A stretch of 60,890 bases of DNA, the filler included, from Theionarchaea archaeon (GTDB lineage: Archaea; Methanobacteriota_B; Thermococci; Methanofastidiosales; SZ-28-30), in assembly GCA_018992565.1 (NCBI GenBank). It is 6 parts of 6 records of this genome, joined end to end, with 100 filler letters (N's around TTAATTAATTAA, not from the genome) between each part and the next. Parts side by side here need not be neighbours in the genome. Positions count along the whole stretch, not along the records: positions 54,778 to 60,890 come from JACVGW010000120.1; 5 more parts are not named here. The stretch is one strand, 5' to 3'. The notes beneath the pieces were generated by a model that was not told the origin of the DNA, searched no databases, and saw nothing but the letters and a program-made list of their open reading frames with translations. The translations under genes and the position numbers were made by a program. This document shows, piece after piece, positions 21,407-60,890 of the stretch (within the stretch, counting starts at the first letter, position 1; each line of letters starts with the position of its first letter).

Positions 21407-22132
21407 ATGATTATCACTGAGAGAGAGGGGATTTGTCCCGCATTGCGCAAGTACTATTCCCGGTTAGCCAGATTCATGATAGCACTTGTGGAAATCCCAG
21501 AGAATGCCATCATTCTGGAAGCAGGGTGTGGTGACGGTGCTTTAACCTGTCATCTTCTTTCGCTCTTGCCAGATCATGTAGTTGTAGGCTATGATTTGTT
21601 TTCGGGCGTCTATGAGGAAAGTCTCAGTGCTTTAACAGGAGCAGTGTCACAGATGAGAGTAATCAGAGGAGACGTGAGAACCATGAGTCTCCATACAGAA
21701 TCTGTGGACCTTGTTATCAGTAATGAATTACTCTGTGACCTCTCCAGGAATGATACCCAGGTGACACTCAATGAGTTCTACAGGATTCTGAGAAAAGGGG
21801 GGACTTTTATTCACGGATGCTTGAGTCCTTATCCAGAAACCAGGGCTCAGGAGCTGGTCTTATTGGCTGACAGTTATTCTGCTGATCCTTTATTTGATCA
21901 CGAATGGTTTTCCCCGCCTGCAGATGAACTGGCAGGAATGGTTCACTCTGCAGGGTTTCGCCAGATCTCTGTGACGTATTTTTCTGATAGCCTGAAGTTC
22001 ACCGGTGATGCAGCTTTCTGCCACTTAGAAGAGTGGGTTCTAAAACCTGAGTTCTTTGAGAAGTATTCCTCAGAGGTCAGGGCCCGCGGGATCGAATATC
22101 CCATGGAGCAGGTAATACACTGCTGTAAGTGA
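21407..22132 (+). CDS. Class I SAM-dependent methyltransferase
   Basis: ILEAGCGDG, GDV, VDLVIS, YRILRKGG. Confidence 0.9.
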   Translation: MIITEREGICPALRKYYSRLARFMIALVEIPENAIILEAGCGDGALTCHLLSLLPDHVVVGYDLFSGVYEESLSALTGAVSQMRVIRGDVRTMSLHTESVDLVISNELLCDLSRNDTQVTLNEFYRILRKGGTFIHGCLSPYPETRAQELVLLADSYSADPLFDHEWFSPPADELAGMVHSAGFRQISVTYFSDSLKFTGDAAFCHLEEWVLKPEFFEKYSSEVRARGIEYPMEQVIHCCK

Positions 22133-22351: not shown

Positions 22352-22717
22352 ATGACATGCAAAGAGATGATTGCTGTCTGTGGATTGGATTGTGAATCCT
22401 GCGACATCAGGAGGGTACCATTTGACTCAGACGCACGTGAACGCATGGTGAAATGGTTTAGAGCACAGGGATGGATTAAGGAGAGTGAGGGTGTTGAAGA
22501 AATAATCAGCCGCAAAATGTATTGCAAAGGATGTCGTGGCGATCGCTCTGTTCACTGGTCACCAGAGTGTCCAATTCTGGTGTGCTGTGTTGATGAGAAG
22601 GGGTTCAAGAGCTGTCATGAATGCAACGACTTCCCCTGTGAAAAGCTGGAAAAGCAGGCTGAACAGGGAGGAAAATATCGCGAAGCCCTTGACCGTCTCA
22701 GAACCATGAAAAAGTGA
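22352..22717 (+). CDS. Cys-rich DUF3795-like protein
   Basis: AVCGLDCESC, CKGC, C.I..CC..KG..SC.EC..FPC. Confidence 0.8.
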   Translation: MTCKEMIAVCGLDCESCDIRRVPFDSDARERMVKWFRAQGWIKESEGVEEIISRKMYCKGCRGDRSVHWSPECPILVCCVDEKGFKSCHECNDFPCEKLEKQAEQGGKYREALDRLRTMKK

Positions 22718-22864
22718 GAGCTTAAAAGGAAATATCATGTACCAGCAATTGCTGTGCTTCTTGTTAAGGATTTCCTGAAGATTGCAGCACGAAGAAGACA
22801 ATGATAATGACTGATCCGGGTTCTCAATCTATACATTTATATATTTGAAAGGGGCTGCCTCTGT

Positions 22865-23479
22865 ATGGAAGATCTGAAGGGAAGGTATGTTCGCTGGTCT
22901 GAAGCCTGTGTCTGGCAGCCCTTTGGCACTTCTCTGGCCATTCTCAGAGTTCTGGCACCTGATTCTTCGCCCTCGCAGGAAAGCGAAGGGATCAAACTGA
23001 ATGCAACAGGGAAAGATGTGTGGGATCTATGCGATGGTACAAGAACGGTTGACGACATTGTGGCCCAGTTACTGGAAGAATACCAGGGCGAACCAGAAAG
23101 AATCCAGGAAAGTGTGGAAACCATAGTATTGATGTTACAAGAACGGGGGTTCTTAACATGTGAAAGTACTCCTCACCTCTATTCGGTACGTGAGATCCCA
23201 CTCCAGGACTATGCCTGCTGGAATGACACAATCATCTGGAATGAGGTGGAAGGCCAGGTGGTGGCGATGAACAACTCTACAGGAGTCGCTCTTCCAATTC
23301 CCACTGAAGCAGCTGAAATGTGGAAGTTGTGTAATGGTAAAACCGCAGTGGAAGATATTTTTTCCATCCTCAAATCGAAGGGATTAATCACACAAAAGAT
23401 GCCTCTTGCCAAATTTAAATTACTTCTGAAACAGTGGATAAAGCTCAATTTCATTATCCTGAAGGATGAGCCTCTATGA
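22865..23479 (+). CDS. Tandem PqqD/RRE peptide-chaperone protein
   Basis: Two PqqD-like units: LNATGKDVWDLCDGTRTVDDIVAQLLEEY and AAEMWKLCNGKTAVEDIFSIL. Confidence 0.88.
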   Translation: MEDLKGRYVRWSEACVWQPFGTSLAILRVLAPDSSPSQESEGIKLNATGKDVWDLCDGTRTVDDIVAQLLEEYQGEPERIQESVETIVLMLQERGFLTCESTPHLYSVREIPLQDYACWNDTIIWNEVEGQVVAMNNSTGVALPIPTEAAEMWKLCNGKTAVEDIFSILKSKGLITQKMPLAKFKLLLKQWIKLNFIILKDEPL

Positions 23480-23488
23480 GGAGATTGC

Positions 23489-24835
23489 ATGCGTGCCTTG
23501 AAAAAAAGAATTACTGTTGAGTTACCTAGTGAAAAATACCTCCTTATTAACCCTTATTCCGGCCTGGCTGACATCATCGATTCAGAAACCAAGAATCTGC
23601 TGGACTCTGAATCAAGTGATGCAACCTATGAGGTCCTTCGTATTCTCAAATCAAGAGGACACCTGGTAGAAGAGGGAGAAGAAGATGATCTTTTTGAATA
23701 CTTGAAGCTCTATGCACAAGAACTGCACTCAGAGGCCTGCAAGAAGAACCACCACCTCATCATCCCCACCTACCACTGCAATCTGACGTGTCCCTACTGC
23801 TTTCAGAAGCACGTATATCGCAAGCGAGCAAACCTCCACATGGTAATGGATGAACAGACTGTAGATTCGCTCTTTAAGGCCATTCTTTTTCTGGATTCTG
23901 AAACTGAAGAAAAATGCATAGAACTATATGGTGGAGAACCTCTTCAAGTGAGGAATATCTCTATTATAGAGTACATCCTCAGAAAAGGTGATTATAACGG
24001 GTATTCATTTAGAGCAATAACTAATGGGGCTGATTTCTATCATTTTGTCCCTTTGCTATCTGAATTCGATGTCAAGGAGGTTCAAATAACTCTCGATGGT
24101 CCCAGGAACGTGCATGATCAAAGACGATTCAGAAAAGGGGGGACGTTTGATGATATTGTGAAAGGCATTGACCTGGCCCTGGAGCATGACATTCCAATAA
24201 GAATCAGAATCAACGTCGACTATGAAAATATCGATTCTATTCCAGAACTTGCACAGTTCTACATAGAAAAGGGATGGTCCTCAAAGGTGAAGGCCAGCAT
24301 AACCAGTGTCTATGCGTCTGAATGTGTGGAGTACCCTTCTGTCATCCCACTGGAGGACGTTCCCCGGAAGATTATTGACCTGTTCTTCAAAGATGAGAGA
24401 ATGACTGTGTTCTCTGATACCTTCAAGGGGCTCAATTTTCTCCTGGGTCACCTTCTACTTGGAGAAGAATTCCACCACCGCTTCTGGGCGTGTAATGCTC
24501 ATACCACACTCCTCTTCTATGATCCTCTTGGAGATATCTATGCATGTGGTGAAGCTGTCGGACATCCGGAGCATGTCATTGGTAAATACATACCTGCACT
24601 CCGCTTCAATGACACGTACTCTCACTGGCGCAACAGGACAGTATTTGCCATTCCTGAATGCACAGAATGCAACCTGGCATTTTTCTGTGGAGGCGGCTGC
24701 GCCTACAAAGCGTATACAGAAACACATTCTATCTACAGTCCGTACTGCGAAAATGTGAAATTCTCGTTGAACTGTGAAGTTCCCTACCTGTATCATGTAG
24801 CCAAACAGAAAGAAGAGAAGGAGGGTGATCTCTGA
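23489..24835 (+). CDS. Radical SAM/SPASM peptide maturase
   Basis: CNLTCPYC, YGGEP, TNG, QITLDG; SPASM C...GDIYAC...CTECNLAFFCGGGC...C; N-terminal RRE-like segment. Confidence 0.93.
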   Translation: MRALKKRITVELPSEKYLLINPYSGLADIIDSETKNLLDSESSDATYEVLRILKSRGHLVEEGEEDDLFEYLKLYAQELHSEACKKNHHLIIPTYHCNLTCPYCFQKHVYRKRANLHMVMDEQTVDSLFKAILFLDSETEEKCIELYGGEPLQVRNISIIEYILRKGDYNGYSFRAITNGADFYHFVPLLSEFDVKEVQITLDGPRNVHDQRRFRKGGTFDDIVKGIDLALEHDIPIRIRINVDYENIDSIPELAQFYIEKGWSSKVKASITSVYASECVEYPSVIPLEDVPRKIIDLFFKDERMTVFSDTFKGLNFLLGHLLLGEEFHHRFWACNAHTTLLFYDPLGDIYACGEAVGHPEHVIGKYIPALRFNDTYSHWRNRTVFAIPECTECNLAFFCGGGCAYKAYTETHSIYSPYCENVKFSLNCEVPYLYHVAKQKEEKEGDL

Positions 24836-24922
24836 GGCTGTATCAGAGCAGCGGGAATAGTCCTGGCATACTAATACCTGCATATCTTTGAATTTTGCCC
24901 GAATCTTTCTGCATATCTTTAT

Positions 24923-26743
24923 ATGTCAAGAATGAAGAGGATTTTTATGATGAAGCTCCATCTGCATGCCAATTTTCCCTATGATTACACCACACCAAAT
25001 GCAGCTCTCGGATATTTGAAATCGTATCTTGCACCATTCAACCATGAGGTAACGAATACATACTGGTATATCCCCCCACGAGAGATTTTTGAGGCCATGC
25101 GTGGGATCTTGGCACGGTTCCAGAAGAGCCGCATCAGCCTCTTTGATCCTTCAATTATCCTCACTGCGTACCTGTCACGGTTCTTTTACAGGGCCCCGGC
25201 ATGCCCCACCATGATCCAATCAATCGTGACCTCCTGTGCATCTCCAGAAGAATTGGAACAGGTTGGATTGTCCTACAAAGGGTTTGTAGATACTGCCCTT
25301 GAGGACATGGCTGATGTAGACATGGCAGGATTCACCCTCAAGTTCTACCAGTGGATTCTGAATTGCTACATCTGGCGCAGACTAAAGCAGCTGAACCCGA
25401 ATATCACTATTGTTATAGGTGGCCTCGATACACGTGAGGAGGCAGTAAAGGCCATGGAGACCTTCAGGGACGTGGACTGCGCCATCTGGGGAGAAGGTGA
25501 ATGTCCGCTGCGAGAGCTGATTACCAGGGATACGGACGGCATGGATGAAGTGCCCCGCCTCATCTACAGGAAGCGCGGTGACCTCTGTATAACTGATATC
25601 ACTACAGAGAGAGTGAGAGAATACCCCTTTGCAGACCATACAGACTACTTTAGACAGCTCAGACAGTTTGATCTGGATATTTCTCCACAGATCCCCATGT
25701 TCACCACCCGCTCCTGCAGGTGGGACAAATGTAAATTCTGCAACGAAAATAAGGGGATCTCCTACTTTGAACGATCAATAGATGAGACTATCAAGGAGAT
25801 AGAATATCAAACCAAGACTCATGGTGTTGACCGGATTGTGTTCCTGGACGCAGATATTGGACGGAAAACTGAGAGAGATTTCAAGAACCTTTTGGAAGGG
25901 CTTCTTCACAGTGTGGATACCAGAGGAGCCCCCTATGATATGGTGGCTGACATATCTCCACAGAGACTGACCAGAGAGACTGTCCAGATGATGAGCAAGA
26001 TCAGGATGGGTGTGCAGATAGGGTTTGAAGCCTTGACAGATTCTCTCTTGAGAAAGATGAATAAGAGGCATTCGTTTCTGGAGAATATCCAGGCTCTCAA
26101 GGTTGCATATGAGTATGGGCTGAAGATGTATGGGCTGAATGTGCTGCGTAACCTCCCGGGGGAGACAGAGCATGAGGTCATGGAGAGTATGGAACAGATA
26201 AAGGGTCTCCGGTTCTTCTTGAGGGAATATCCCCTTCATCTGTCTGAGCTGACACTGTATAAGAGGGCACCCTACTTCAAGGAGATTTCTCCAGAGGAAC
26301 GGGAAACGAGATGGGTTGTCAACTTCCTGTATGATGAGATGTGTCAGCAGGGCCTCCTCAATGAGGAGGGAAGGTGGGACTTTTTTGGGTTCAGGGCACG
26401 GGATTTGATACATCATAACCTGTGGGACCAGGTGGCGACACTGCTGGAACGGGTCCAGTCAGAGACCATTTCGTATACGTGGCAGGAACACGGGGATGGG
26501 AGTGTATTGATTGAGAATAACCAGGTGACTGGGGACAAGAAGTACGTCCTCACCAGGACTGAAACTGACGTTCTGAAGTTCTGTGACAGTGTCGTGTCTT
26601 TAGAACAGGTGGAGGAGAGATTTCCTGATGACGATATTAGTGATATACTCTCACAGCTGAGGAAGGAAGCTTTCCTGTATCTTGATGAAAGGAATCGAGT
26701 AATTTCTATTCTCTCTGCCCGGAAGATTGTCCCAGAAGACTGA
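24923..26743 (+). CDS. Cobalamin-type (class B) radical SAM enzyme, RiPP C-methyltransferase-like, with C-terminal RRE-like wHTH
   Basis: PNAALGYLKSYL, IVIGG, WGEGE, RSCRWDKCKFC (CX4CX2C), QIGFEAL..LL.KMNK; C-terminal LTRTETDVLKFCD. Confidence 0.85.
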   Translation: MSRMKRIFMMKLHLHANFPYDYTTPNAALGYLKSYLAPFNHEVTNTYWYIPPREIFEAMRGILARFQKSRISLFDPSIILTAYLSRFFYRAPACPTMIQSIVTSCASPEELEQVGLSYKGFVDTALEDMADVDMAGFTLKFYQWILNCYIWRRLKQLNPNITIVIGGLDTREEAVKAMETFRDVDCAIWGEGECPLRELITRDTDGMDEVPRLIYRKRGDLCITDITTERVREYPFADHTDYFRQLRQFDLDISPQIPMFTTRSCRWDKCKFCNENKGISYFERSIDETIKEIEYQTKTHGVDRIVFLDADIGRKTERDFKNLLEGLLHSVDTRGAPYDMVADISPQRLTRETVQMMSKIRMGVQIGFEALTDSLLRKMNKRHSFLENIQALKVAYEYGLKMYGLNVLRNLPGETEHEVMESMEQIKGLRFFLREYPLHLSELTLYKRAPYFKEISPEERETRWVVNFLYDEMCQQGLLNEEGRWDFFGFRARDLIHHNLWDQVATLLERVQSETISYTWQEHGDGSVLIENNQVTGDKKYVLTRTETDVLKFCDSVVSLEQVEERFPDDDISDILSQLRKEAFLYLDERNRVISILSARKIVPED

Positions 26744-26893
26744 GCATGTAGTTGCTACTGTTGTATCGGCTTACATCAGACTGTGAGATAGAGGCAGTTC
26801 GAATTATTTGTAGCAGGATGTTCAAAAATTCTGATTCTTACCTGACAAAAGATATATATAGGTGAAGCGTGAAGAGTCAGCAGAGGTGATACA

Positions 26894-27016
26894 ATGGAAG
26901 TCGTACGACTCAACAAGAAGATGTGGACTGATGCTACTGTGGAACCCTTGGATTTCAATCCAGGACCTGCTGTCATCTGCGGCTGCGGTGGCGGCTGCTG
27001 TTATGGCAGATGGTAG
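26894..27016 (+). CDS. Putative RiPP precursor P3, 40 aa: MEVVRLNKKMWTDATVEPLDFNPGPAVICGCGGGCCYGRW
   Basis: Absent from ORF track; own TATA (GATATATATA ~26851-60), RBS GAGGTGA, T-tract ~27050-66; Cys/Gly core. Confidence 0.85.
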   Translation: MEVVRLNKKMWTDATVEPLDFNPGPAVICGCGGGCCYGRW

Positions 27017-27521
27017 TCACTGTAGCGAATGAAGACCTCTGAAACACACCTCTTTCTCTTTTTTTTAATTACTCCGACTCTGACAGCTCTCAAGTCTGTC
27101 CAGGACTGGACCTGCTTCATACTGGAGGCGACATATTCATTCTGATAGAGATTCCATCATTTTCAGGAGCAGTGGGTAGTACACTTCTCTGGCCTGCTTG
27201 GAAAAGGTGCAGTCTGGCTGGAGCAACCTCCCTTTTTCTTGATATGTGTAGTGGCCACATCCTCCGCCACAGATCATGGCAAACTTGCAGTAATGACATG
27301 ATTTCATGTGAAAGATTGTTCTCTTTCTCCATTGGTGATACTTCTGGTTAAATGAAAGATCAGGGTAATATCTCCCAACTGCATGTTGGGGATCACCCAG
27401 AGAATCAGTGCAGAAATAGAGNNNNNNNNNNNNNNNNNNNNNNNNNNNNNNNNNNNNNNNNNNNNTTAATTAATTAANNNNNNNNNNNNNNNNNNNNNNN
27501 NNNNNNNNNNNNNNNNNNNNN

Positions 27522-29425: not shown

Positions 29426-31567
29426 ACGTCTTCCTGAAGCTGGTGGTGCACCCGTGTCCTGAGTGGAAATCTGAATTCTCTGGAATCGATACCCCGGGGC
29501 CCAGAAACAGACGATAATGTGGTCTCTGGCAGCAGAGACTGCTGCACTTCTTAAAGAAACGGTAACATATGTTGAAGAGGGTGTCAGTTTCTTGATTAAA
29601 TCACTGTCATTCCAGAGGGTGAGGACAGTACCTGCAGGGCAACACTCCATGTTAATTCTCAGGTACCCCTGATGGTAGTCAGTACGTATGGCATTGGTCC
29701 GGGGACATTCTTTCCAGATCTCAAGAGATGGATCTCCAATGACATGGTAGATTTCCAAGTGATCCTTGACGTAGCGCAGACCTCCACTTAACGTCAGGGG
29801 CAAATATGTCTTGGCATAATTGAGAATATCACCTATTCTGTTGTTTTTCACTGTATAGTTTGCTGTGAATCCTGGAATCCGGGGGATAATCCCCGACCAT
29901 ACAGCATCGAAGAGTGCTTTCATCAAGTCATCATTGAGCCAGGTGTGGGAAGGCCTGGTTGCTGCAATAAGAGATGGGGCACCTCCGTCCATGGAGAGCA
30001 GCTTCTCAGCAAAACACTCCCTGGGCCTCCTGAGGTCAAACTGGCCCGTCAGGCAATTGATGCTGTAGAAGATGGAAGGCGTGTCACTGCTAATCGATTC
30101 AAGGTGAGATATCTTAAATGCGGGGTGAACCCATCCTGCGGGGGATCCGTGATCTCTGTGCCCAACCAGGAGGCACCCTTCAGAGACTGCTTCAATGAGT
30201 TTTTGACTGGCTTCCTCCTCATTGAAAATGTGTGATCTCACCGTCTCGGGTACTGGGCTTCCGTCAACATACTCTCTCATGTCAGGATTGCTACTGACAT
30301 ACACCCGTTCCACTTCAACCCCCAGATCTTCAATGTGAGAAGCTATAGTCTCCATAGTCTTAACGTATGCCCTGTCTTCTCTGCCATCTCGTTTGCCTTT
30401 GTCCTGGAAGTAGGCCGCAAATACCATCTTTCTATAGTAGTGAAGGTCGTCCGGGGGATCTCTCTCATATGAGATTATCCTGTCCACTACAGCCAGTCCC
30501 TGCTCTTCAGTTTGGACAGGAATGCGTCCCACTGAAAGCCAGGGCAGTACATACTGGTCGCTGCGGACTGGATCTTCTTCTGTGCTGTAGTAGTAATCAG
30601 TGATATTGTGGCCTGAAGGGCTCCCTGTAATTTTCTCTGCAGGGATGACCTCAATATCCCCAAATAACAGGACATACTGAAGACGACCTCCTGCAGCTCT
30701 CTTTCTTCTGCGGATATATTCTTTTACAGCGTCCACAGTAGCCCCCACTCGATCTAATGATACCGCCTCTGTGGAAAGTCCCCGCATAGTCTTCCAGTAG
30801 GCCAGCTTACCTGCAGGGTCCCTGAATTGATCGTGGTAGATAATGAGGAGTTCTGGACCCTTTCCCGCCAGGGGGGCTCTTGTCACAGGAGAAGGTACCT
30901 CTCCTCTGCCTGCAATTCTCCGCAGGGGATTTAGAAAGAGATTTTCATAGGCTTTCCTGTTTGTTGCAGTCTCTATAGATTCCCCTTCCCCAGGAGATGG
31001 ACTGAGATGGATGGTTACCGTAATGGAACTGAACCCCACCAGTCTTCTACGAGCGGGATTGTACTGGAGAGGTCTCACATGGATGAGCAAAGCGTGATAG
31101 CCATCAATAGAGAGGGGACCTGTCACCTCCACAATGGTGTCAGGATACAGCCTGTCGATCTTGTAGAAGTCTTTGTCATACTCGAATTGGTTCTTCTTCT
31201 TGCTGTCCACCAGCAGCTCCTGAGCAGGTAGAATCAAGACATGGTCAAAATAGACTGGATTTTCTGGTTCCACAGTTACGCTGTAGCGGCAGCCACGAGG
31301 AATCTGCACATACCGTCCAAGAGAGGGCAGGAGTGGTTTGCCGCTCTCTGCCAGAAACTGGGTGTGAGGAATATTCACCTGGTTGAAAGGGATGACGACG
31401 CCCTCGACGGTGCGTGAATCGTCTGACAGGAAAAACCCTGAAAATGTATAGGCAACTACAATTTTCTGTTCCCGTTCTTCTACGGTTACCAGAGGCTCCT
31501 CCCCGTGAAGACTCATAACATATTCAAAAGGGAGACCTTCCGGCTTCAATGATTTAAACTCCCTCAT
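29405..31567 (-). CDS. Gingipain-like C25 cysteine peptidase with propeptide
   Basis: GKPLLP propeptide, PLQYNP, YVLLFGD, TDYYY, VGRIP, HRDHG (His), SINCLTG (Cys), YHVIGDP. Confidence 0.9.
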   Translation of the reverse strand: MREFKSLKPEGLPFEYVMSLHGEEPLVTVEEREQKIVVAYTFSGFFLSDDSRTVEGVVIPFNQVNIPHTQFLAESGKPLLPSLGRYVQIPRGCRYSVTVEPENPVYFDHVLILPAQELLVDSKKKNQFEYDKDFYKIDRLYPDTIVEVTGPLSIDGYHALLIHVRPLQYNPARRRLVGFSSITVTIHLSPSPGEGESIETATNRKAYENLFLNPLRRIAGRGEVPSPVTRAPLAGKGPELLIIYHDQFRDPAGKLAYWKTMRGLSTEAVSLDRVGATVDAVKEYIRRRKRAAGGRLQYVLLFGDIEVIPAEKITGSPSGHNITDYYYSTEEDPVRSDQYVLPWLSVGRIPVQTEEQGLAVVDRIISYERDPPDDLHYYRKMVFAAYFQDKGKRDGREDRAYVKTMETIASHIEDLGVEVERVYVSSNPDMREYVDGSPVPETVRSHIFNEEEASQKLIEAVSEGCLLVGHRDHGSPAGWVHPAFKISHLESISSDTPSIFYSINCLTGQFDLRRPRECFAEKLLSMDGGAPSLIAATRPSHTWLNDDLMKALFDAVWSGIIPRIPGFTANYTVKNNRIGDILNYAKTYLPLTLSGGLRYVKDHLEIYHVIGDPSLEIWKECPRTNAIRTDYHQGYLRINMECCPAGTVLTLWNDSDLIKKLTPSSTYVTVSLRSAAVSAARDHIIVCFWAPGYRFQRIQISTQDTGAPPASGRRLSNDSP

Positions 31568-34172: not shown

Positions 34173-34961
34173 ATGAAAGAGAATTCAAGGGCTAGTTCAG
34201 AAAAGCAGTTTCAGAACCTCAGGAGATTCAATGCTTTCATGGGTGTCCTCCATCTAGTTCAGGGCATACTCATGGTGGTCATCAGCAGCGACTTCTCTTT
34301 GCCTGTGACTACTACCTATCTGCAGTTCAATTCGGAAACCAGCAGTCTCATACCGGTTACAGAGACGCTGTATCACCTGCCGCTGGGTCCTGCAGTTGCC
34401 CTCTTCCTGTTCATGTCAGCTACTGCACATTTTGTCGTGGCCTCCCCCCAAGGGTTCCCTATGTACGTCAGGAATCTGACGTCGCACATGAATAGCTTCC
34501 GCTGGATCGAGTACGCTTTCAGTGCCTCATTGATGATCGTGTTGATTGCCATGCTTGTAGGGATCTATGACGTTGGAACACTCCTGGCTCTGTTTACGCT
34601 GACAGGGGTTATGAATCTCATGGGATACATGATGGAACTCCATAATCAGAGCACTGAAAAGACGAGCTGGACGTCTTATATCATCGGATGCATTGCAGGA
34701 GTTGTACCCTGGATTGTGATTTTTATATCACTGCTGGGCGCTTCATCCACAGAGGGGACGTCAGTTCCCACCTTTGTCATAGCAATATTCATCTCGATTG
34801 CTGTGTTCTTCAACCTCTTTGCTGTGAATATGGTCCTTCAGTACAAGAAAGTGGGCAGATGGAGGGACTACCTCTACGGAGAAAAGATGTACATCGTTTT
34901 GAGCCTTGTTGCTAAGTCACTGCTAGCGTGGCAAGTATTCGCAGGGACACTGCGTCCGTAG
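34173..34961 (+). CDS. Heliorhodopsin
   Basis: LRRFN..MGVLHLVQG, NSFRWIEYAFSASLM (counterion Glu), YIVLSLVAKSLLAWQVF (retinal Lys). Confidence 0.93.
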   Translation: MKENSRASSEKQFQNLRRFNAFMGVLHLVQGILMVVISSDFSLPVTTTYLQFNSETSSLIPVTETLYHLPLGPAVALFLFMSATAHFVVASPQGFPMYVRNLTSHMNSFRWIEYAFSASLMIVLIAMLVGIYDVGTLLALFTLTGVMNLMGYMMELHNQSTEKTSWTSYIIGCIAGVVPWIVIFISLLGASSTEGTSVPTFVIAIFISIAVFFNLFAVNMVLQYKKVGRWRDYLYGEKMYIVLSLVAKSLLAWQVFAGTLRP

Positions 34962-38120: not shown

Positions 38121-39038
38121 TCATACATTCATAGCGTAGAACGTGAAGATAACGACATCTGGCAGGAAGTGAATCAACCATGCCCAGAAGAATCCTCTTG
38201 TCTCCAGGAGGCTCTTCCCCAAGAACCATCCAAGGAATCCCGAGAGGAGAACACCCAGCACTCCATTGGGAACACCGTAGTAGTGTCCAAGCCCGAAATA
38301 GACCGTTGTTATTACGAGAGCCTGTTGACTGCCCAGAGCGGATACCAGTACAGAGAGGGGGGCAGCACGCAAGGTGAACTCTTCATTGAAAGCATTTATT
38401 GCTGCTATGAATACAGCAACAGGGATCAGGGGCAATACAGTCATGAAGGCATTTGCTGTTGGGCGCGTTGAAAGAACCAGGAAGATAAAAGTCACCACAG
38501 TAAATACCACAGCAAAGATACTCCCCGTTCTTGTCCAGGGCTCCGGCTTCTTCATCCCCAAAAGCCTTGAGGGTTCAACAGGGGCATCTAGTGTACCCTT
38601 CACCAGGAAAAGGTCGGGAAGTCTCCTTCCTGTGAGCAGTAGCCCTGCAAGAATGACGAGAGCAGGGGACAGCCTTACAAGGTGGGTCACAACTGCTGAA
38701 ACTGCCCACGGTGCCTGAGTCTCCCATGTAGTCCAGGCAGAAGTACCTCGAATAAAGGGGATTATTCCCCACTTCCAGCCGCCTCCAAACCCGAGAACGA
38801 ATATCGTCAGTAGGACTCCTACAAATGCTCTCAACGGCTTCAAGTCCTTGTCAATGAAAGTGAAAGCACAGAGCACTAGTAATCCAACAGCATGAATCCA
38901 GGGCCACCAAGAAGGCTCACCTGATGACACTTCTCGCCAGATAATAACTGCGAGGTTGCTGGTGACTAACATGGAAATCCATGCAATCAGTATCCTCTTC
39001 CGACGCAACCATTCTCCAGGAGATTCCTTGTCATTCAT
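38121..39038 (-). CDS. CPBP/Abi (CAAX-like) intramembrane glutamic protease
   Basis: NEEFTLR, FGLGHY, WLIHFLPD. Confidence 0.9.
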   Translation of the reverse strand: MNDKESPGEWLRRKRILIAWISMLVTSNLAVIIWREVSSGEPSWWPWIHAVGLLVLCAFTFIDKDLKPLRAFVGVLLTIFVLGFGGGWKWGIIPFIRGTSAWTTWETQAPWAVSAVVTHLVRLSPALVILAGLLLTGRRLPDLFLVKGTLDAPVEPSRLLGMKKPEPWTRTGSIFAVVFTVVTFIFLVLSTRPTANAFMTVLPLIPVAVFIAAINAFNEEFTLRAAPLSVLVSALGSQQALVITTVYFGLGHYYGVPNGVLGVLLSGFLGWFLGKSLLETRGFFWAWLIHFLPDVVIFTFYAMNV

Positions 39039-48378: not shown

Positions 48379-49146
48379 TTAGAATTTCTTCATCTGTTCT
48401 TCCAGCATAATTCGTGCTTCACGAGAGAACCAGCACTCCAGAAATATCTTCTCTTTTTCTTCAAGATGCTGCAGAATCTGTCTTTCAACTGGCTCTGTGC
48501 GATCTCTTTTAATCGCAACACGTGCTTTCTCAGGCAGAGCACCCAGCACCGTGGCTTTTTCCTCACAGAGAGGCACAACCTCTTCAAGCTGTGTTACACA
48601 GTCCACAATGCCCATCTTGAGTGACTCCTCAGGCAAGTAAAACTCACCAAAATCAGTAATCGTACGGGCAAGGCGCGTCCCTACAATGCTTCGCAGGATA
48701 CAGTCAACAGGATAAGGAATAGGAACACCAAGCTTCACCTCATTCAACCCCATGAGCTTTTTTCCGTCAGCAATGTACCGATAATCACAGCAAAGAGCCA
48801 GGATACACCCTCCTGCAACTGCATGTCCTGTTACCGCTGCTATCGTGGGCATTGGCAGCGTGTACAAATCTACCTGTAATCCGGTGAATGCACGATAGAA
48901 TTCAGCAAAACCCTCCCTATCAAGATAATAGAGCTCAGGTATATCCCACCCAATGGAGAAAAACTTGTCATTGGAACTGCAGAGTATGAGGCTCTTGCTG
49001 GTTTTCTGCACCTCTTTCAGAGTCTCCCGTAATTTCTGGGTGAGTCCCAGGTTGATGGCATTCGTTTTTCCGCGATTGAGTCTTACCAGAGCTACATCGC
49101 CATGGTACTCGATACTCACAAGTTCTATATCACCTTCTCTTCCCAT
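48379..49146 (-). CDS. Enoyl-CoA hydratase/isomerase (crotonase)
   Basis: NAIN, FFSIGWD, GHAVAGGCILALCCDYR, GLNEVKLG. Confidence 0.93.
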   Translation of the reverse strand: MGREGDIELVSIEYHGDVALVRLNRGKTNAINLGLTQKLRETLKEVQKTSKSLILCSSNDKFFSIGWDIPELYYLDREGFAEFYRAFTGLQVDLYTLPMPTIAAVTGHAVAGGCILALCCDYRYIADGKKLMGLNEVKLGVPIPYPVDCILRSIVGTRLARTITDFGEFYLPEESLKMGIVDCVTQLEEVVPLCEEKATVLGALPEKARVAIKRDRTEPVERQILQHLEEKEKIFLECWFSREARIMLEEQMKKF

Positions 49147-49457
49147 AGTCTTTCCACCTGCCAGCACCTTAGTGGCAGTTGCTTTTATCATTTTCTGTTG
49201 GACAAGAAGAGTATTCACAATGGCTAGAAACCAAGAGTCAATCTTCCCGTGGCCAACCTCTGGAAGAGGACGTGTGGTATGAAGGTTGCCCCACAAGGGT
49301 GTGGGTATGCTTATATGGATGAATGGAAAATGTAGATCAGTATTCATGCTCGTGATGAAGATACACACGGACGACACAGACCTTCTCGGTAGAAATGAGA
49401 AAAAGGAGGCCTGTGAAAACAATTGAAGAGTGTTCTAGAAGATGAGAAGGTGTAACA

Positions 49458-54777: not shown

Positions 54778-57424
54778 CAACTCGCTTGATAATCTCAGAA
54801 CGCATTTGAGGGGAAATAGTATAGGTTCGAGCAGATTTTGCCGGGCGAATTTCCCTGTTTACAGATTCAAGAGACATCTGATAGCTGGTTTCACTGCGTC
54901 TCTCCAGGGATAAAACCATGAGAACAGGCTTGGATTTCCTGGCTGCAAAATACAGGAATCCAGGAATGTGAAGCCTTCCCATACGTCTGCCTATGGCAAG
55001 AAACGAAATGAGACCCATAATGGAGACTATAACAGCTAAGGTCAAATAATTGCGACCAAAAGCACTGGATCCAATGTTTTCAGCTCCTGGTGCAGAATCT
55101 GGAGCATCTGTCAGAGAAAAAAGCCCACTGCACACATCATCATTTTCTCTCTCAAAGGAATACAACTCCACAGCCTTTTCCATCAAGATGATGAGATCAT
55201 TTCCACAGCCAGATACATTGGTCACCAGAGTCCTGGGCACAACTGAATCACTGGACTTCCGATTCCATTTTTCCTCAAAATCGCTGCTCAATATCCTGAC
55301 ACTCTTGTCCCATATCTTCACCACGATTTCTTTATTTCCATCCCCATCCATGTCTGATATCCCTTCAATTTCAGAAGGTTGATACAGTACCATGGAGTTC
55401 GTTTTCAGCAATTCTAGCTCGTGATTATACATGTTGATATTTCCATTGGAGTCTGTGACTACAATCTCCTTCATCCCATCTCTATCAAAGTCACAAATCC
55501 CGGCTGGTGACAGAGAGCAGTCATACATCCTGTCATGAAGGATTTCCCCCGTCTCATCCATCACAAAAAGACGCCCATGCAGGTGACTCGCATGATACAC
55601 TGTACCTACAATCTCACTCCTTCCGTCCCCATCAATGTCATCTACACCTGCTCTGACAATTTGAAGCTCTGAAGCCATCTCCTTGCACCACACTTCTCTC
55701 CCGTTAAGGTCGAGTACAGCCAAGTATGCGTGACAATCATCTCGATCCCCCAGAGCACAGCCATTGCAGCACGAATGAGAACCCACAATAATGTCTGGTG
55801 TCTGATCTCCATCAATATCACAGAAAGCATCGATGACAAGGCTTGCTGCAGACATATAGAACCATTCCACATTTCCAGAAGGATATTCAAAGGCAAGGAT
55901 CCCTCTGGGGTGCAGGGTGTACCCTGAATTGACCACTGCGATAATCTCAGAGATTCCATCTTCATCAATGTCATAGGAGATAACAGGGGCAAGTGCAGCT
56001 TCCATCTTCTCTTTGGTGGAAACACCAAAATATGCTGTGAAGTCGAATTCGGTCAGATTTCCATCTGCAAAATCCAGGGCGTACACAGTGTATCTCCCAT
56101 CATTCACCGTATAGAAGATGTCCGGGACAGTATCACCATCTGCATCCATGAGGGCTATGTGGAGGATGTCTTCCTGAGCATCCTCTTCACCAAGGACTCT
56201 CCTCCCGGAATCAAGTATCAGCAATGTATTACCATCTGCCACCACGATTTCATTGTTCCCATCTCCATTCACATCTCCCACAGCACACCCCATTTGCTGC
56301 TGCTTCAGATATGGAGTCAGAACCAGAGGAACTTGATATGACCAGACCCTCTTTAGGTCTTCAAAGGAATAGAGCTCTCTTGAAGGATACGGATACGAAC
56401 GAGTTCCCCTGAATGTGTCTTCCCGGGTCTTCAAGAAAATGATACTCTCATCTGTTGCCAGCGTCATGTATTTTCCATCTGAAGACACCTCAACTGACCT
56501 CGCGTTATTAACAACCTTTCGCCACAGAAGCTCGCCTCTCCCATTGAATACTTGTACGTTCTGAGAACTCAAAGCTGCGATATAGTGCCCATCGGAGGAG
56601 ATGTCGCAATCTACTATGTTATCTAGGGTAAGTCGAACGTGTTCCATCCCAGAGCTATCATAAACGTAGAGTGTTGTTGGAGTGCTTACGAGAATCACTT
56701 CTTCGCCTGTCTCCAGCCCAATGATAGAGCCAAGATCTTCCCTGATCCGGCGGACTGCCTCTCTGATAATATAGAGAGACCCAGTTTCTGTTCCCGCCAC
56801 CAGAGAACCATCTCTCAAGAAGGCCATAGATGTGACAGATGGAATCTCATAATCTTGAGACATCACGTCATCATCAACAGTAAACAGATAGATGCTGCCT
56901 GAGGTAGCTGCTGCAGCCTTTTGGCCATCGGGGGACGCACATACACATGAGATAGGAGTCCCTACATACAACTCTACCGCTGATCCTGCCAGGGGAAATA
57001 GATAGATATTCTTGTCTGTTCCAGAAATTGCACATGCATCGTTATCTGAAATTGCCACTGAAAGCACAGGTTCGCTGGTAAAGTGTACTACTTTATCTCC
57101 AGTAGATCTCAAAATGAGAGTTCCTGACTTCGTGCCCAGCATCATATTCTTGTCACCAAGGTCCACACCTGTAATCTCAGTATCCAATTCCTCCTGTGTA
57201 GTGATCTCACCAAATTCATTAAAAGAGAAGTAATCCCCAGAGGTGCATCCGGCTAAAACATTCCCTCCATCTGCTGTCATTGCAATACCCGAAATCCCAT
57301 CAATCCCATAACTCCAGGATTCAGGTACAGCCAGAAACAGGGGTGCACGCAGGATGAAACAGGTCACGAGGCACGCCATCAACTTCCCTCTAATAGACAT
57401 CACCACACATGAGTGCTGCATCAT
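54778..57424 (-). CDS. Large surface/transmembrane protein: WD40-like propeller, FG-GAP/VCBS repeats, TM helix and truncated cytoplasmic domain
   Basis: Signal-like N-terminus; ASPDG/ISSDG repeats; GDVNGDG, DIDEDG, DIDGDG, DFDRDG repeats; TM followed by RRMGR. Confidence 0.8.
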
Positions 57425-57687
57425 TGTTTATAAATTTTGGTCTCATAATGGAGTCTCCATACATTGGCAGTGTGTGGGAAGTGACTGCAAGAGTACCTTG
57501 CGAGTGAGCTTCAGCTCTTGATGTTGAACCTATGATGGCATCAGCACGTTCTCCCAAAGCCTCCTCTTAAAAATCTCCTGTAAGGGGGGACCCCTCTGCT
57601 GACATGAAGCTGCCAGATACCACGGTAGGAAGGTCCAGTATCTGGGAAAAAGTCTATTACACCAGCTGCTCAACAGCAATTACAGAC

Positions 57688-58224
57688 TCACTGCTTGTAG
57701 GCGTCATACCACCGTGGAAGTTCATGTATGGGGGTATCGGGAGAACAGGAACCTTTCATCACGACGTACGTGTCTGCAACCATATCATGTATAGCCTGCT
57801 TCTTGTCAGAGAATGACACCAAATACCAGTAACTCGCCTGAAACACGAGGGTCAGTATTCTGGCAAAATACCTGACAGAGGCTGTCTTGAAGGAGATTCT
57901 CTTCCCATATGAATCCACCACTCGTATTCCAGCAACCATCTTACCAAGAGTGCCCTGCAGAGACGAGCTCTCCAGTGCAGCGCAATACACCCAACCCACC
58001 AGAAAAAGAACAAGCACAATCATGAAAAAAGACAAATCTGTGGTAATCCACAGGACAAGGGCAAGTGGAACTGCAACCACCAGAACATCAACAAAGAAAG
58101 CACATGAACGTACTGCAGCCCCTACATAATCTGTATATTCCCCGAGATGCTGGAGATTTGACCCGCATTTCCTGCAAAATCTCACCCCAATCTCGTTCCG
58201 GGCTCCACAGTGTGGACAGATCAT
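57688..58224 (-). CDS. RDD family membrane protein with N-terminal zinc ribbon
   Basis: CPHCG...FCRKCG; R..AFFVD; QGTLGK..GIRVV; KQAIHD.VADTYV. Confidence 0.92.
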   Translation of the reverse strand: MICPHCGARNEIGVRFCRKCGSNLQHLGEYTDYVGAAVRSCAFFVDVLVVAVPLALVLWITTDLSFFMIVLVLFLVGWVYCAALESSSLQGTLGKMVAGIRVVDSYGKRISFKTASVRYFARILTLVFQASYWYLVSFSDKKQAIHDMVADTYVVMKGSCSPDTPIHELPRWYDAYKQ

Positions 58225-58394
58225 ACTTTCACCTGACAACTATACATCGGTAGTTATCCCTGTAATACGATATTCTTAAAGGTTTGCAGAAAAAGACACA
58301 TGACAACGCTGCAGGTAGGGCCTTGATGTGTGCGTGCGAAACCCTTATGTACAGCGGCACATTAGTAGTACAAAATAAGACAGGAGGTGAATAC

Positions 58395-58556
58395 GTGTTT
58401 GCAAGGCTGGTAACACCTGGATTGGATATAGAAATAACAGAACAAGCATGTGGTGGTGGGAATACGCCCAGTGGTGGTGGGAAGTGTGCTCGTGGCTTTT
58501 CCCCATACTGGCCCGGTGCTTGTCGCTCAGGGAGTTTCCCCACTGTGCCTCCCTGA
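58395..58556 (+). CDS. Putative orphan RiPP precursor P2, 53 aa: MFARLVTPGLDIEITEQACGGGNTPSGGGKCARGFSPYWPGACRSGSFPTVPP
   Basis: RBS GGAGGTGA then GTG; three CxxGxxP units at exact 12-aa spacing; homologous to 21125-21289. Confidence 0.8.
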   Translation: MFARLVTPGLDIEITEQACGGGNTPSGGGKCARGFSPYWPGACRSGSFPTVPP

Positions 58557-58757
58557 AACCAGAGCTCATATCATGTTCTTTGAGCACCTTTCTTTCCTTT
58601 TTCAACTCTTCCATGGTCTTACCTGATAGCATCATGGGATCAGTATCCAGGATGTGAGGGTGCCTTGATTCACTATTTCTAGGATACAGTGAAGTTCTTT
58701 TTCCTAGCATGGCCAAACATTCTTAAGCTCACTGCCCCATGAGGATGTGGTGATTTT

Positions 58758-59069
58758 GTGCCCATACATGAAGTGAGAATAACAGTCCTGAAACGAATGC
58801 ATCCGTCAGAAGTCTTCGAGAACCCCCCTGTCACACCAGCAGAACCCATGGGGGCATGTGGAGTACTGAAAGATGGCCAACAATTCGTAAGCAAAGGCGG
58901 GTCAATGCCTGAAGGATTTCCCTGCACAAGTGCCTGGATTGACCTGTTTCCCAGCGTTCGAGTACTATCCTTCGGTGGAGACATGCCCTGGTTCAAAGAG
59001 AAAGGCGTTTCCGTCGACTGCTGTCATGATGGATTGAGGCCTGTCATATTCAGATTAGAAAGACTCTGA
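58758..59069 (+). CDS. TIGR04076-like conserved Cys protein
   Basis: C....DGQ.F, PEGFPC..AW, CCHDGLRPVIFRLER. Confidence 0.85.
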   Translation: MPIHEVRITVLKRMHPSEVFENPPVTPAEPMGACGVLKDGQQFVSKGGSMPEGFPCTSAWIDLFPSVRVLSFGGDMPWFKEKGVSVDCCHDGLRPVIFRLERL

Positions 59070-59362
59070 CCAACAATCCTGTATATCACGAGATCAATCC
59101 CTTTTTCAGTAGCAGTGGAGAGGTAGAAAGGAAGAGACACTCTATTCTTCAAGGAGCAGAACGAACCCAGGGAGGGCAGAAGACAATCTGCACGTATCAG
59201 ATGTGAAAGAAAGTCTCTTGTGCAGCTCAGAATAGAACCTCACAAAGAGAAAACAAAGGAAAATGATACATCTGAGTCCTTGCAAGAGATATTCTTCTTC
59301 TCACAAAATGATATGCGCATGGGGTTCCGGAGCTCCCACGCCTGGAATTTCTCGGACCTCCA

Positions 59363-59650
59363 TCATTTCCTTTTCCTTGTTCCTACTTTTCTGGACGATT
59401 TTTTCCCCGTCGCTCTTCTCAACATTGTTCCCTTCATCCTGATTGTCTTCATGTTCATGAGCCCTCGCTGCCTGACTGCTGCAGTTCTTGTTCTCCGGGT
59501 TCGAGGATTAACCAAGGATACCAGTGACCTATCAGCTCTCCTGGTCTTTCTTGATCTCCTGGCTTGAGAGGGTTTCCTGGTCCCTCTACCTGATTTGGCC
59601 TTCATTCTTACCTGTGACATTTTCCTCGTCTTCAAAAAGGATTTTCTCAT
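59363..59650 (-). CDS. Possible very basic 95-aa protein (37 Arg/Lys, 1 Asp)
   Basis: GAGGTGA RBS 6 nt before ATG; could be an artefact of purine-rich sequence. Confidence 0.35.
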   Translation of the reverse strand: MRKSFLKTRKMSQVRMKAKSGRGTRKPSQARRSRKTRRADRSLVSLVNPRTRRTRTAAVRQRGLMNMKTIRMKGTMLRRATGKKSSRKVGTRKRK

Positions 59651-60193
59651 TTCGGTTCACCTCACTACTCTTTTCTCTTCCTCTTCCCATGTATACACAG
59701 AGTCATCTTTTGCCCTCTCTAAGACTATTCCTCTGATGGCTTTTTTTTGCTCTGCACTCTCAATAAGTCACTTCCCACGTTTTCTGGTTCCCTTCGCTAT
59801 CCAGCATCAATTTCCACCGGAATATGCCCATTTGCTGTCTCTGCAATCTTTCACCCTTCACAAAAAGAGGCTACTGAGTAAAGACTGCCCACAATAGCTA
59901 CCAACACCAGGTTGGCAGTGAGCTTCTCCCTCTACCTTACTTGACAATTTAAATCTTTCTATCTCAGTCAGATTCCCCTATGTCTTCAGTGCTGTGGCAG
60001 AGCCACAACGATGCTGTTGAAACCTCGCAGGAGTGGCCAGCAGTGACAGCGCAACTGTTCGTGGCCTCCTAGCGCTATACCATCAACTTGACTGGGGAGC
60101 CTCCAATGTTCACCTTCTTACAGAACGTATCTATACTATGAAAGCACGTACTTAGAAAAGCACCTCACCATTCCTGAGAAGACTGCTTCCTCC

Positions 60194-60890
60194 TTATTCC
60201 TTCCAGAATTGCCACCATTTGGGCTCTTCTTCCCACACATTTCGTTTCTTGGTACATTCTTTCCTTTGCAGCTCATCCACCAGGACAGGTATCGTGGAAA
60301 TCATGAAGATAAGGATCATCCATCCAGGGACTATGATATTGCGAACTCGGAAGAAATCTTTCCATTGCGCTGCTTCATCAAGGAAAGACTCCCAAATATC
60401 CATGGTGATCATGCCAGACACAAAAACGGTGTTATCCTCTCCAACAGCAACTGCCCGGGGATACATTTCATGTGAATAGTACCAGAGTGTTGTTTCTCCA
60501 GTCTCAATATCGACATGGAAGATCTTCCTGGAGGAGCACCCGCTGATAATGAGCTCACCCTCCTTAACCGCAATATCTCCGGAGAGTGGGGCAGGTGAAT
60601 GAATGGTTCTCAGTATCTCTTCACTCTCCACGTCGTACTGGTAGAGAAGTGAGTTATCACGAATCCACAAATACTTCCCATCCCAGGCGAGCCCCCAGGG
60701 AGTACTGTACGGTGTCTCATAGGAATTGAGGACGTCACCTTCTGGAGAAATCTTGTAAACGGTCCTCTTGCTGTAATCAGCCACCCAGAAGTCCTTTCCG
60801 TCATATGTCAGTCCTGCAGCTTCAACACAGGGCAGTGGCAGGTTCCTGACAACCGTTTCTGTTTCCAGATCATACTGCAGCAAAGCATGG
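60194..60890 (-). CDS. Beta-propeller protein (glutaminyl cyclase/YncE-like repeats) with C-terminal TM; 5' end outside window
   Basis: GLTYDGKDFWVAD, GLAWDGKYLW repeats; hydrophobic helix near C-terminus. Confidence 0.72.
   Translation of the reverse strand, partial: HALLQYDLETETVVRNLPLPCVEAAGLTYDGKDFWVADYSKRTVYKISPEGDVLNSYETPYSTPWGLAWDGKYLWIRDNSLLYQYDVESEEILRTIHSPAPLSGDIAVKEGELIISGCSSRKIFHVDIETGETTLWYYSHEMYPRAVAVGEDNTVFVSGMITMDIWESFLDEAAQWKDFFRVRNIIVPGWMILIFMISTIPVLVDELQRKECTKKRNVWEEEPKWWQFWKE

Follow-up and report, generated by a model that had tools for sequence, protein, structure and literature searches.

Does a small archaeal gene that encodes a cysteine-repeat peptide, and that has no modifying enzyme beside it, belong to a set of precursors served by an enzyme encoded elsewhere in the genome? 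This question is raised by P2, a 53-codon open reading frame (ORF) at positions 58395..58556 of a 60,890-nt stretch of DNA, hereafter the window, from a Theionarchaea archaeon (assembly GCA_018992565.1). A first-pass annotation had paired P2 with a second small ORF of the window, P1, which lies upstream of radical S-adenosylmethionine (SAM) genes, and had proposed that one maturase modifies several scattered precursors in trans, as in prochlorosin systems. We herein describe P2 as a genuine gene of a dispersed peptide family, and we weigh its possible role as precursor of a peptide that is made on the ribosome and modified after translation (RiPP), for which the enzymes next to P1 turn out to be doubtful partners. 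It should be noted that the window is a chain of contigs with fourteen N runs and with six pairs of 44-N runs, which flank the all-frame stop linker TTAATTAATTAA. P2 resides on the 6.1-kb piece 54778-60890, P1 on the piece 20662-27421.

Results

Coding status of P2

The P2 product consists of a leader-like part with the N-terminus MFARLVTPG and a core with three exact CxxGxxP units (CGGGNTP, CARGFSP and CRSGSFP), as had been stated before and as a frame scan confirmed. Over the entire window, the P2 frame is the sole stop-to-stop frame with at least two such units. A hidden Markov model (HMM) was built from 17 distant family members, with P1- and P2-type sequences excluded to avoid circularity, and retrieved P1 with E 5e-16 and P2 with E 1e-15 from 1411 six-frame segments of the window. 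Orthologues of P2 were found at 96, 75 and 56% identity and one of P1 at 69%. The ratio of non-synonymous to synonymous substitution rates (dN/dS) of P2 against its orthologues on contigs L004 and L001 is 0.19-0.26. In the core of the P2 orthologues, the proportion of changed non-synonymous sites (pN) is 0.11-0.17 and that of synonymous sites (pS) 0.52-0.78, whereas in leader residues 2-18 non-synonymous change proceeds about as fast as synonymous change. A ribosome site of the AGGAGGTG type precedes the start codon by 5-8 nt in all nine aligned family genes, and P1 carries GGAGGTGA 5 nt upstream of its ATG.

The start codon of P2, which in the window is GTG and not ATG, is furthermore polymorphic. 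The locus occurs in 19 DNA runs from 6 studies. G>A at 58395 (GTG to ATG) was found in all three of the DNA runs that were compared with the window, in all contigs of X3 and X13 and at half of the depth in X5, and the contig from the RNA library retains GTG. This RNA-library run (X20) has two contigs only on the 6.1-kb piece, one of which spans 58392-58549 and thereby nearly exactly the ORF. Since DNA may occur in such libraries, we take this contig as a hint of expression that falls short of proof.

It could be argued that P2 is a chance ORF, or that the real gene is one of the ORFs antisense to it (58229-58543 or 58345-58716 (-)). Antisense frames are indeed open both in the window and in L004, and they share the wobble positions of P2, so that dN/dS alone cannot separate the strands. 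However, start, stop, length and the AGGAGGTG site are conserved on the plus strand in nine of nine genes, while the extents of the antisense ORFs differ among loci. The GTG/ATG polymorphism falls exactly on the start codon, the 27 aligned family sequences all align from Met1, and neither an Rfam match on the P2 piece nor a stable RNA fold (z +1.2) speaks for an RNA element. A non-coding or antisense origin is therefore hardly credible, and P2 is a genuine protein-coding gene.

P2 probably has its own transcription unit, with a candidate TATA-like box ahead of it and a candidate T-rich terminator behind it (Table 1). TTTTATG or TTTATAAG words stand at a comparable distance upstream of P1 and of the family genes on L001, L004 and L031. 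A scan for bacterial-type hairpin terminators near P2 returned none, and the gene is not bordered by repeats of the kind expected of a mobile insertion.

A third match of the HMM in the window (48968-49129 (-), E 3e-4) was rejected; it runs out of frame within a 347-aa ORF (48379-49422 (-)) and has neither a start codon nor a leader.

Signature and distribution of the family

With a profile of six sequences, 23 matches at E<=1e-3 were obtained among 1.84 billion representative proteins, and 19 of these are peptides of 48-90 aa with the same start and Cys-Gly-Pro repeats (all 19 were read). The remaining four are long proteins (P0010, P0012, P0025 and P0027), and the two of these that were inspected are unrelated repeat proteins that matched through low complexity. 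Named members of the cluster come from metagenome-assembled genomes (MAGs) of Theionarchaea and Methanofastidiosia, where they are annotated as hypothetical proteins. Neither P1 nor P2 matched any Pfam or NCBIfam family at E<=0.01, curated precursor models included.

The family can be defined by two signatures, to both of which P2 conforms. The peptides are about 50 aa long (43-69 aa) and start with M-[FYH]-A-x-[LM]-[IV]-x-x-G, and their first Cys at about residue 18-21 opens a series of at least two C-x(2,3)-G-x2-P units. The strong ribosome site of its own moreover marks P2 as a separate small gene. All 27 aligned sequences contain at least two C-x(2,3)-G-x2-P units, and the units of the core, three to four in number, are spaced as C-x2-G-x2-P-x(2-5). 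In this alignment (A3), M1, C19, G22, P25, C31, G34 and P37 are invariant (27/27). At the N-terminus, F, Y or H at position 2 and A3 each occur in 26 of 27 sequences, L or M at position 5 in 25, I or V at position 6 in all 27 and G9 in 22. A3, G41, C43 and G46 are near-invariant, while other core positions vary freely.

Across 132 species genomes of the class (the class set is identical to the phylum set), the family is present in a single one, the 2.5-Mb draft G001. This genome contains seven members at six loci, on contigs C215, C201, C30, C8 (a tandem pair), C80 and C174, and the window adds two members within 60 kb on different contigs. Weak matches at E 0.007-0.1 were obtained in 11 other genomes of the 132 with an earlier alignment (A2), none of which reached E<=0.01 with A3; these matches are short, and several contain internal stop codons. 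We conclude that P2 belongs to a lineage-specific multi-copy peptide family of Theionarchaea-type archaea that is not recognised by Pfam or NCBIfam. The dispersal of its genes across the genome is well supported, and with seven members at six loci in G001 the proposed library of scattered paralogues finds support in a genome other than that of the window.

Two Bacillota sequences with 44% identity to P2 residues 2-37 were set aside. L003 looks by eye like the signal peptide of a lipoprotein with a Gly-rich stretch behind it, and L002 is likewise not a family member.

Relation of P1 and P2

The likeness of P1 and P2 had been described earlier in terms of a common leader pattern, lengths of 53 aa (P2) and 54 aa (P1) and first Cys residues at positions 19 and 20, respectively, all of which is correct. 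In a six-frame regular-expression scan of the whole window, the leader pattern [YF]AxL[IV][ST]xG[IL][ED] matched the P1 and P2 ORFs alone, and the motif GxTP[ST]GGGKCxxG was likewise confined to them. This motif occupies residues 22-34 in P2 and 36-48 in P1, so that its register differs by one repeat unit, which verifies the shift reported before. P1 itself has one exact CxxGxxP and one CxxxGxxP repeat. BLASTP similarity between the two peptides is weak (9/15 identities, E 1e-4), and in a MAFFT alignment their units pair off in colinear order, with C, G, P, G, C, G, P, G, C and G invariant.

The two registers are bridged by the 64-aa orthologue P0003, which has four units. Of these, units 1-3 align to P1 (14/32 identities, E 7e-5, BLASTP) and units 2-4 correspond to P2. 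Since these four units align to both peptides and family members differ in having three units or at least four, the process is fairly described as one in which units are gained and lost, and the repeat shuffling that had been suggested is borne out in this form. That both small ORFs are real and true paralogues, as had also been claimed, follows from the distant-member HMM, the ribosome sites, dN/dS and the start polymorphism. Within P2, an exact 13-nt direct repeat GTGGTGGTGGGAA (58450-58462 and 58471-58483) encodes both GGG stretches, and slippage on this repeat might lead to the gain or loss of units.

Neighbourhoods of P2 and of other family members

The features of both pieces are compiled in Table 1. 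Pfam and NCBIfam searches of the 6.1-kb piece bear out that the neighbours of P2 are an RDD protein and a TIGR04076 protein and that no maturase is among them; upstream of these genes, a large FG-GAP/beta-propeller protein is encoded. Radical SAM and PqqD genes are absent from the P2 piece, from the G001 contig with the P2 orthologue (L001, C215, 4.9 kb) and from the metagenome contig L004 (5.6 kb), and the same holds on all three for YcaO, LanM or similar modifying genes.

Table 1. Features on the P2 and P1 pieces of the window. Coordinates count along the whole window; family scores are given with the cut-off where one applies.
Feature	Position	Strand	Description
P2	58395..58556	+	53 codons, GTG start, TGA stop; 53 aa
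P2 leader-like part	58395-58448	+	residues 1-18
P2 core	residues 19-53	+	three C-x2-G-x2-P units
Shine-Dalgarno-like AGGAGGTG	58382..58389	+	ends 5 nt upstream of the P2 start
Candidate archaeal TATA-like box TTATGTA	58345..58351	+	predicted; ~45-50 nt upstream of the P2 start
T-rich run TTTCTTTCCTTTTT, candidate archaeal terminator	58589..58602	+	predicted; ~35 nt past the P2 stop
RDD family membrane protein with zinc ribbon	57688-58239	-	Pfam RDD 6.8e-19, 69 bits (gathering cut-off 24.1); DUF7577, Zn ribbon
TIGR04076 family protein	58758-59069	+	103 aa; NCBIfam 69.4 bits (cut-off 33)
Very basic (Lys/Arg-rich) protein	59363-59650	-	95-aa ORF; no family match
P1	21125..21289	+	54 aa; P2 paralogue on another piece; distant-member HMM E 5e-16
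SAM-dependent methyltransferase	21407..22132	+	Pfam Methyltransf_11 5e-15; 117 nt downstream of P1
DUF3795 protein, Cys-rich	22352..22717	+	Pfam 5.1e-16
Tandem PqqD-like protein	22865..23479	+	204 aa; Pfam PqqD 2.3e-21, residues 40-97; presumed RiPP recognition element (RRE) component
Radical SAM/SPASM peptide-maturase-like enzyme	23489..24835	+	Pfam Radical_SAM 2.7e-16; SPASM domain 46.9 bits (27)
B12-binding radical SAM enzyme, RiPP C-methyltransferase-like	24923..26743	+	TIGR03975 147.6 bits, under the cut-off of 281.85; Pfam Radical_SAM 1e-13
Second precursor-like ORF	26894..27016	+	40 aa, Cys/Gly-rich C-terminus; between the B12 radical SAM gene and the SPASM fragment
SPASM-type enzyme, C-terminal fragment	27137..27307	-	cut by the contig end; C..C......CGGGC word, by eye

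A 96-aa counterpart of the basic 95-aa protein adjoins TIGR04076 in G033 (L042 924-1214; likeness by eye), a 3.0-Mb draft genome with contigs of up to 350 kb that is the closest relative of both pieces among the genomes compared. Because of this counterpart at the same place, the ORF is probably a real gene; it is a member of the conserved neighbourhood and stands outside the peptide system. In a relative from run X13 (~91% alike), a contig joins 57410 to 58242 and the RDD gene is absent, which indicates that populations differ in the region around P2. An exact copy of P2 lies on a 97,018-nt contig of another assembly, separate from the contig of P1, and for exact P1 and the exact PqqD protein the longest contig reported in other assemblies is in both cases 58,988 nt, which fits linkage of P1 to PqqD with P2 located elsewhere.

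Processing of P2 in cis would require that the TIGR04076 (or the RDD) protein acts on it, or that a maturase gene lies just past the 6.1-kb piece, which extends 3.6 kb upstream and 2.3 kb downstream of P2. The TIGR04076 protein is a conceivable partner in that it has four invariant Cys and no known function, and its orthologue (68%) is found within ~1 kb of P2 or its orthologue in two diverged genomes, that of the window and G001 (L001), despite rearrangement. However, L004 contains a P2 orthologue without TIGR04076, G033 retains TIGR04076 and RDD without P2, and the X13 relative does without the RDD gene. Of the three TIGR04076 matches in G001, one lies in an unrelated operon, and the other five family loci of this genome are all without a TIGR04076 gene. 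Consequently, we regard processing in cis as improbable. The TIGR04076 protein has no relative by sequence in the PDB, and its predicted model, with a mean predicted local distance difference test score (pLDDT) of 51 from a 4-row alignment, is too poor for use.

At five of the six G001 loci, no radical SAM or PqqD gene is found around the peptides, and at the sixth (C8) a radical SAM pair is located ~7 kb off, beyond the PheRS genes. The neighbours are mostly housekeeping genes (PheRS, CoA transferase, ThyX, CLC channel, KaiC-like ATPase, NUDIX), with ABC and MFS transporters and pyridoxal phosphate (PLP) enzymes as further ones. When the uncharacterised neighbours of family genes were compared with one another by BLAST, a single cross-match emerged, between a beta-propeller surface-type protein on L026 (12750-14114) and the window from 4393; it was dismissed, the window copy having no peptide beside it. 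On L031 (C174 of G001), an 80-aa Cys-rich ORF (1784-2026 (-)) adjoins a family peptide and has a weak likeness to the DUF3795 protein encoded near P1 (11/19 identities, E 5e-6, pairwise). Other pieces of the window encode a heliorhodopsin (34173-34961 (+), Pfam E 2e-102) and proteases of the C25 gingipain-like (29405-31567 (-)), M50 (145-1551 (+)) and Rce1/CAAX types (38121-39038 (-)).

The gene cluster next to P1

On its piece, P1 follows a Tpt1 fragment and is itself followed by the methyltransferase, DUF3795, PqqD, radical SAM/SPASM and B12 radical SAM genes, the last three of which begin 1.6 kb downstream of P1 on the same strand. Judged by its domain content, this cluster is a RiPP-type gene set with P1 in precursor position. 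The PqqD protein has 17 homologues at 47-79% identity, the named ones from Theionarchaea MAGs. Its Pfam score covers residues 40-97, and the second half is known from motif words alone; the words W..LCDG and WK.C.G, invariant in both, suggest that the protein is built from two PqqD-like halves. The best NCBIfam models for the SPASM enzyme are those of peptide maturases that form thioethers, CefB with 141 bits (cut-off 600), TIGR04463 with 136 (525) and PapB with 101 (340).

Downstream of the B12 enzyme, the 40-aa ORF 26894-27016 has GAGGTGA 4 nt ahead of its ATG, the AT-rich word ATATATATA ~40 nt upstream and a T8 run past its stop, and the fragment 27137-27307 is convergent to it. The 132 genomes yielded no homologue of it, although eight of them have one weak match each (E 0.001-0.09; five with internal stops), nor was there an NCBIfam match for the peptide. 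It is a candidate substrate at least as good as P1, of a type different from P1 and P2.

The agreement of tetranucleotide profiles had been named earlier as a check that the P1 and P2 pieces come from one genome. The pieces do agree (correlation 0.93; GC content 45.7 and 46.6%), but the contigs of G001 correlate equally well (0.90-0.94), so that this measure cannot assign the pieces to one genome. G033 has relatives of genes from both pieces, with 85% identity for TIGR04076, 73% for the tandem PqqD protein, 66% for the methyltransferase and 51% for the B12 radical SAM enzyme. Its place as closest relative of both is the best available sign that they derive from one kind of organism, as far as sequence likeness can tell.

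Discussion

We propose that P2 is a stand-alone RiPP-precursor-like peptide matured in trans, a reading for which our confidence is evenly balanced. In the corresponding mechanism, a PqqD/RRE-type domain would recognise the common N-terminal motif M-[FY]-A-x-L-[IV]-x-x-G, and a radical SAM/SPASM enzyme encoded elsewhere would cross-link the three Cys, probably as thioethers and one per repeat. Methylation may come after cross-linking, and the leader would be removed after modification. That P2 is modified, the chemistry of this modification and the identity of the enzyme are all points that we infer. A RiPP role is favoured by the N-terminal tag and by a core whose scaffold consists of Cys, Gly and Pro only, with varying unit number, by the small size together with strong translation signals, and by a host lineage rich in radical SAM/SPASM maturases, several of them near other Cys-rich ORFs. 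The sequence pattern of P2, a conserved N-terminus followed by a core fixed at scaffold positions only, would fit the leader and core of a RiPP precursor; a co-encoded enzyme is missing from the P2 piece, L001 and L004, and its paralogue P1 alone lies near such genes.

A number of observations weigh against this reading, most of all in the form that involves the enzymes next to P1. Of nine family loci, that of P1 alone has a maturase close by, and within its 2.5 Mb G001 has as many as 37 radical SAM/SPASM matches. With such numbers, the proximity of P1 to a maturase may be due to chance and is not strong evidence. Within the P1 cluster, the methyltransferase and DUF3795 genes intervene between P1 and PqqD, and the precursor-like ORF 26894-27016 adjoins the enzymes. 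No precursor family of Pfam or NCBIfam was matched. It is the core, not the leader, that is conserved among P2 orthologues, which would fit an unmodified functional peptide as well. G033 contains no family match better than E 0.29 in the whole assembly, and its methyltransferase and DUF3795 genes stay with Tpt1, apart from P1 and from the PqqD/radical SAM genes. In G001, where seven peptides are encoded, the tandem PqqD protein is lacking, and the best match is to a single domain, at E 3.6e-8. In G001 and G033, the distribution of the peptide family hence does not follow that of the enzymes next to P1.

The arrangement in G033 is informative at both sites. The basic protein/TIGR04076/RDD neighbourhood is intact (L042, C7, 900-2700) with the P2 site empty, and Tpt1 is followed after 86 nt by the methyltransferase (66%) and a 121-aa DUF3795 protein with no P1 in between (L046, C17, 900-3563), the next gene after DUF3795 being a convergent TIGR04084-type radical SAM gene. 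As this genome is empty at exactly the P1 and P2 sites, the peptide genes seem to come and go as single small units, and P2, being absent from G033, is dispensable. In G033, a contig of 1.6 kb carries the PqqD/radical SAM pair and another of 3.4 kb the B12 enzyme, and no family peptide lies within 19 kb of a second PqqD/radical SAM cluster (48% identity) that is found on a large contig. In G001, the best radical SAM match is 38% identical and belongs to a cluster of radical SAM, PqqD and methyltransferase genes that is preceded by a small ORF of another kind. Small Cys-rich ORFs with unrelated sequences were also observed at radical SAM loci on L012 (3008-3154 (-)), L039 (3963-4157 (+)) and L009 (2822-2941 (-)), which suggests that many distinct peptide systems exist per genome.

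These data bear directly on the claim that the PqqD, radical SAM and B12 radical SAM enzymes next to P1 form one promiscuous, ProcM-like set for P1, P2 and further paralogues, which is a sub-case of the proposed RiPP-precursor role and is judged separately here. The N-terminal motif is common to P1, P2 and the whole family, P1 is placed upstream of the enzymes on the same strand, and two PqqD-like halves could serve more than one enzyme or leader. Apart from the fragment 27137-27307, the other ~54 kb of the window are free of further radical SAM genes, a view of the host genome that is limited to 60 kb. However, G033 has the 73% PqqD gene, then a radical SAM gene, and the 51% B12 enzyme, and both peptide sites are empty there, while G001 has the peptides without the tandem PqqD and with no radical SAM enzyme closer than the 38% match. 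In the window, the ORF 26894-27016 is nearer to the enzymes than P1. The predicted complex of PqqD (alignment A4) and P2 (A3) scored 0.02 against a mark of 0.32, which counts neither for nor against binding. It should be noted that G001 and G033 are drafts and that the enzyme contigs of G033 are tiny, so that an adjacent precursor may be unassembled; the trans model is therefore weakened and not refuted. Maturation of P2 by the P1-cluster enzymes, as put forward in the first-pass annotation, is thus not supported. They remain one candidate maturase, which the comparative data disfavour and which we consider doubtful.

Alternatively, P2 could be a functional small peptide outside radical SAM chemistry, with the placement of P1 a coincidence, for example an unmodified Cys/Gly/Pro-rich peptide that binds a metal or a partner, or the substrate of a different, unrecognised system. 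Eight of nine family loci without a nearby maturase would be expected in this case, as would the strong purifying selection on the core next to nearly neutral leader residues 2-18, the separate distribution of peptides and P1-cluster enzymes in G001 and G033 and the lack of a known precursor family. On the other hand, an N-terminal tag followed by a scaffold-only repeat core of varying unit number is typical of RiPP precursors, and radical SAM/SPASM maturases are exceptionally numerous in the host lineage. Among the protein-language-model neighbours of the peptide are moreover putative sactipeptide bacteriocin clusters (0.79-0.83, best score 0.85), to be taken as a lead only. We thus consider a role outside radical SAM chemistry rather unlikely, and retain the reading of P2 as a RiPP-precursor-like peptide matured in trans. 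Judged by the purifying selection on its core, P2 would seem to be a conserved product that serves a specific function and not a member of a rapidly diversifying library.

The most far-reaching version of the original proposal is a combinatorial Cys-repeat library with a 9-residue address tag, cross-linked in trans by one promiscuous radical SAM/SPASM enzyme with the tandem PqqD protein, and this we judge to be unlikely. If true, it would represent a prochlorosin-like system of one enzyme and many scattered substrates, the first in Archaea and the first based on radical SAM chemistry, in which paralogues such as P2 are conserved across genera, implying specific functions. What is new irrespective of this is a previously unrecognised, lineage-restricted family of precursor-like peptides with a defined signature and mostly unlinked genes. 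It provides a concrete substrate set for asking whether one archaeal radical SAM maturase serves unlinked precursors, and at the same time a warning that the obvious candidate enzymes beside P1 may be the wrong ones. For genome mining, it is of relevance that neighbourhood-based tools would miss eight of the nine family loci seen here.

Relation to known peptide systems

In the prochlorosin systems of marine picocyanobacteria, where the lanthipeptide precursors (ProcA) have Nif11 leaders and the synthetase is ProcM, many paralogous precursor genes are scattered through the genome, mostly away from the enzyme, and have a common leader element and differing cores. The P2 family resembles them in that many precursor-like genes with a common leader element are scattered in one genome (G001). 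In contrast, neither a Nif11/NHLP leader nor a LanM-type enzyme was detected by Pfam or NCBIfam, the common part of the leader comprises ~9 residues only, the candidate chemistry is of the radical SAM type instead of dehydration and cyclisation, and the cores of P2 orthologues are conserved across genomes instead of hypervariable. A single common maturase is unsupported by G001 and G033, with co-occurrence of enzyme and precursor found in the window alone. Of the analogy drawn earlier, the scattering of precursors therefore stands, while the core, which in P2 orthologues is more conserved than the leader, does not conform to it. A single promiscuous enzyme, ProcM, and precursors of the Nif11 family have been described for prochlorosins (PMC10783134).

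Closer in presumed chemistry are the ranthipeptide and sactipeptide systems (SCIFF/ScfB, PapA/PapB, the 'Cys-every-fifth' system CefA/CefB and TIGR04463). With these, the P2 family has in common small precursors with regular Cys spacing, the P1-adjacent SPASM enzyme finds its best matches among CefB, TIGR04463, Clo7bot, PapB and the SCIFF maturase, and a PqqD-type recognition protein is encoded near P1. However, this enzyme scores far under the family cut-offs, the Cys residues of the P2 family are 11-12 residues apart in C-x2-G-x2-P units, the peptides match no precursor model, P2 has no adjacent enzyme, and the host is archaeal.

For archaea, radical SAM RiPP clusters have been predicted in many genomes, and few products have been characterised (PMC12144867). 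A literature search, with subscription journals outside its scope, found no report linking Theionarchaea or Methanofastidiosia to RiPPs. The system described in PMC13692751 is CrpA/CrpC from Methanococcus voltae, in which an archaeal SPASM radical SAM enzyme introduces ranthionine cross-links into a Cys-rich substrate encoded in the same cluster. By this description, the P2 family is set apart from CrpA/CrpC, since its members are peptides of ~50 aa with mostly unlinked genes and the CrpA/CrpC substrate is a Cys-rich protein encoded next to its enzyme. CrpA/CrpC shows that thioether chemistry, of the kind that we propose for P2, exists in archaea.

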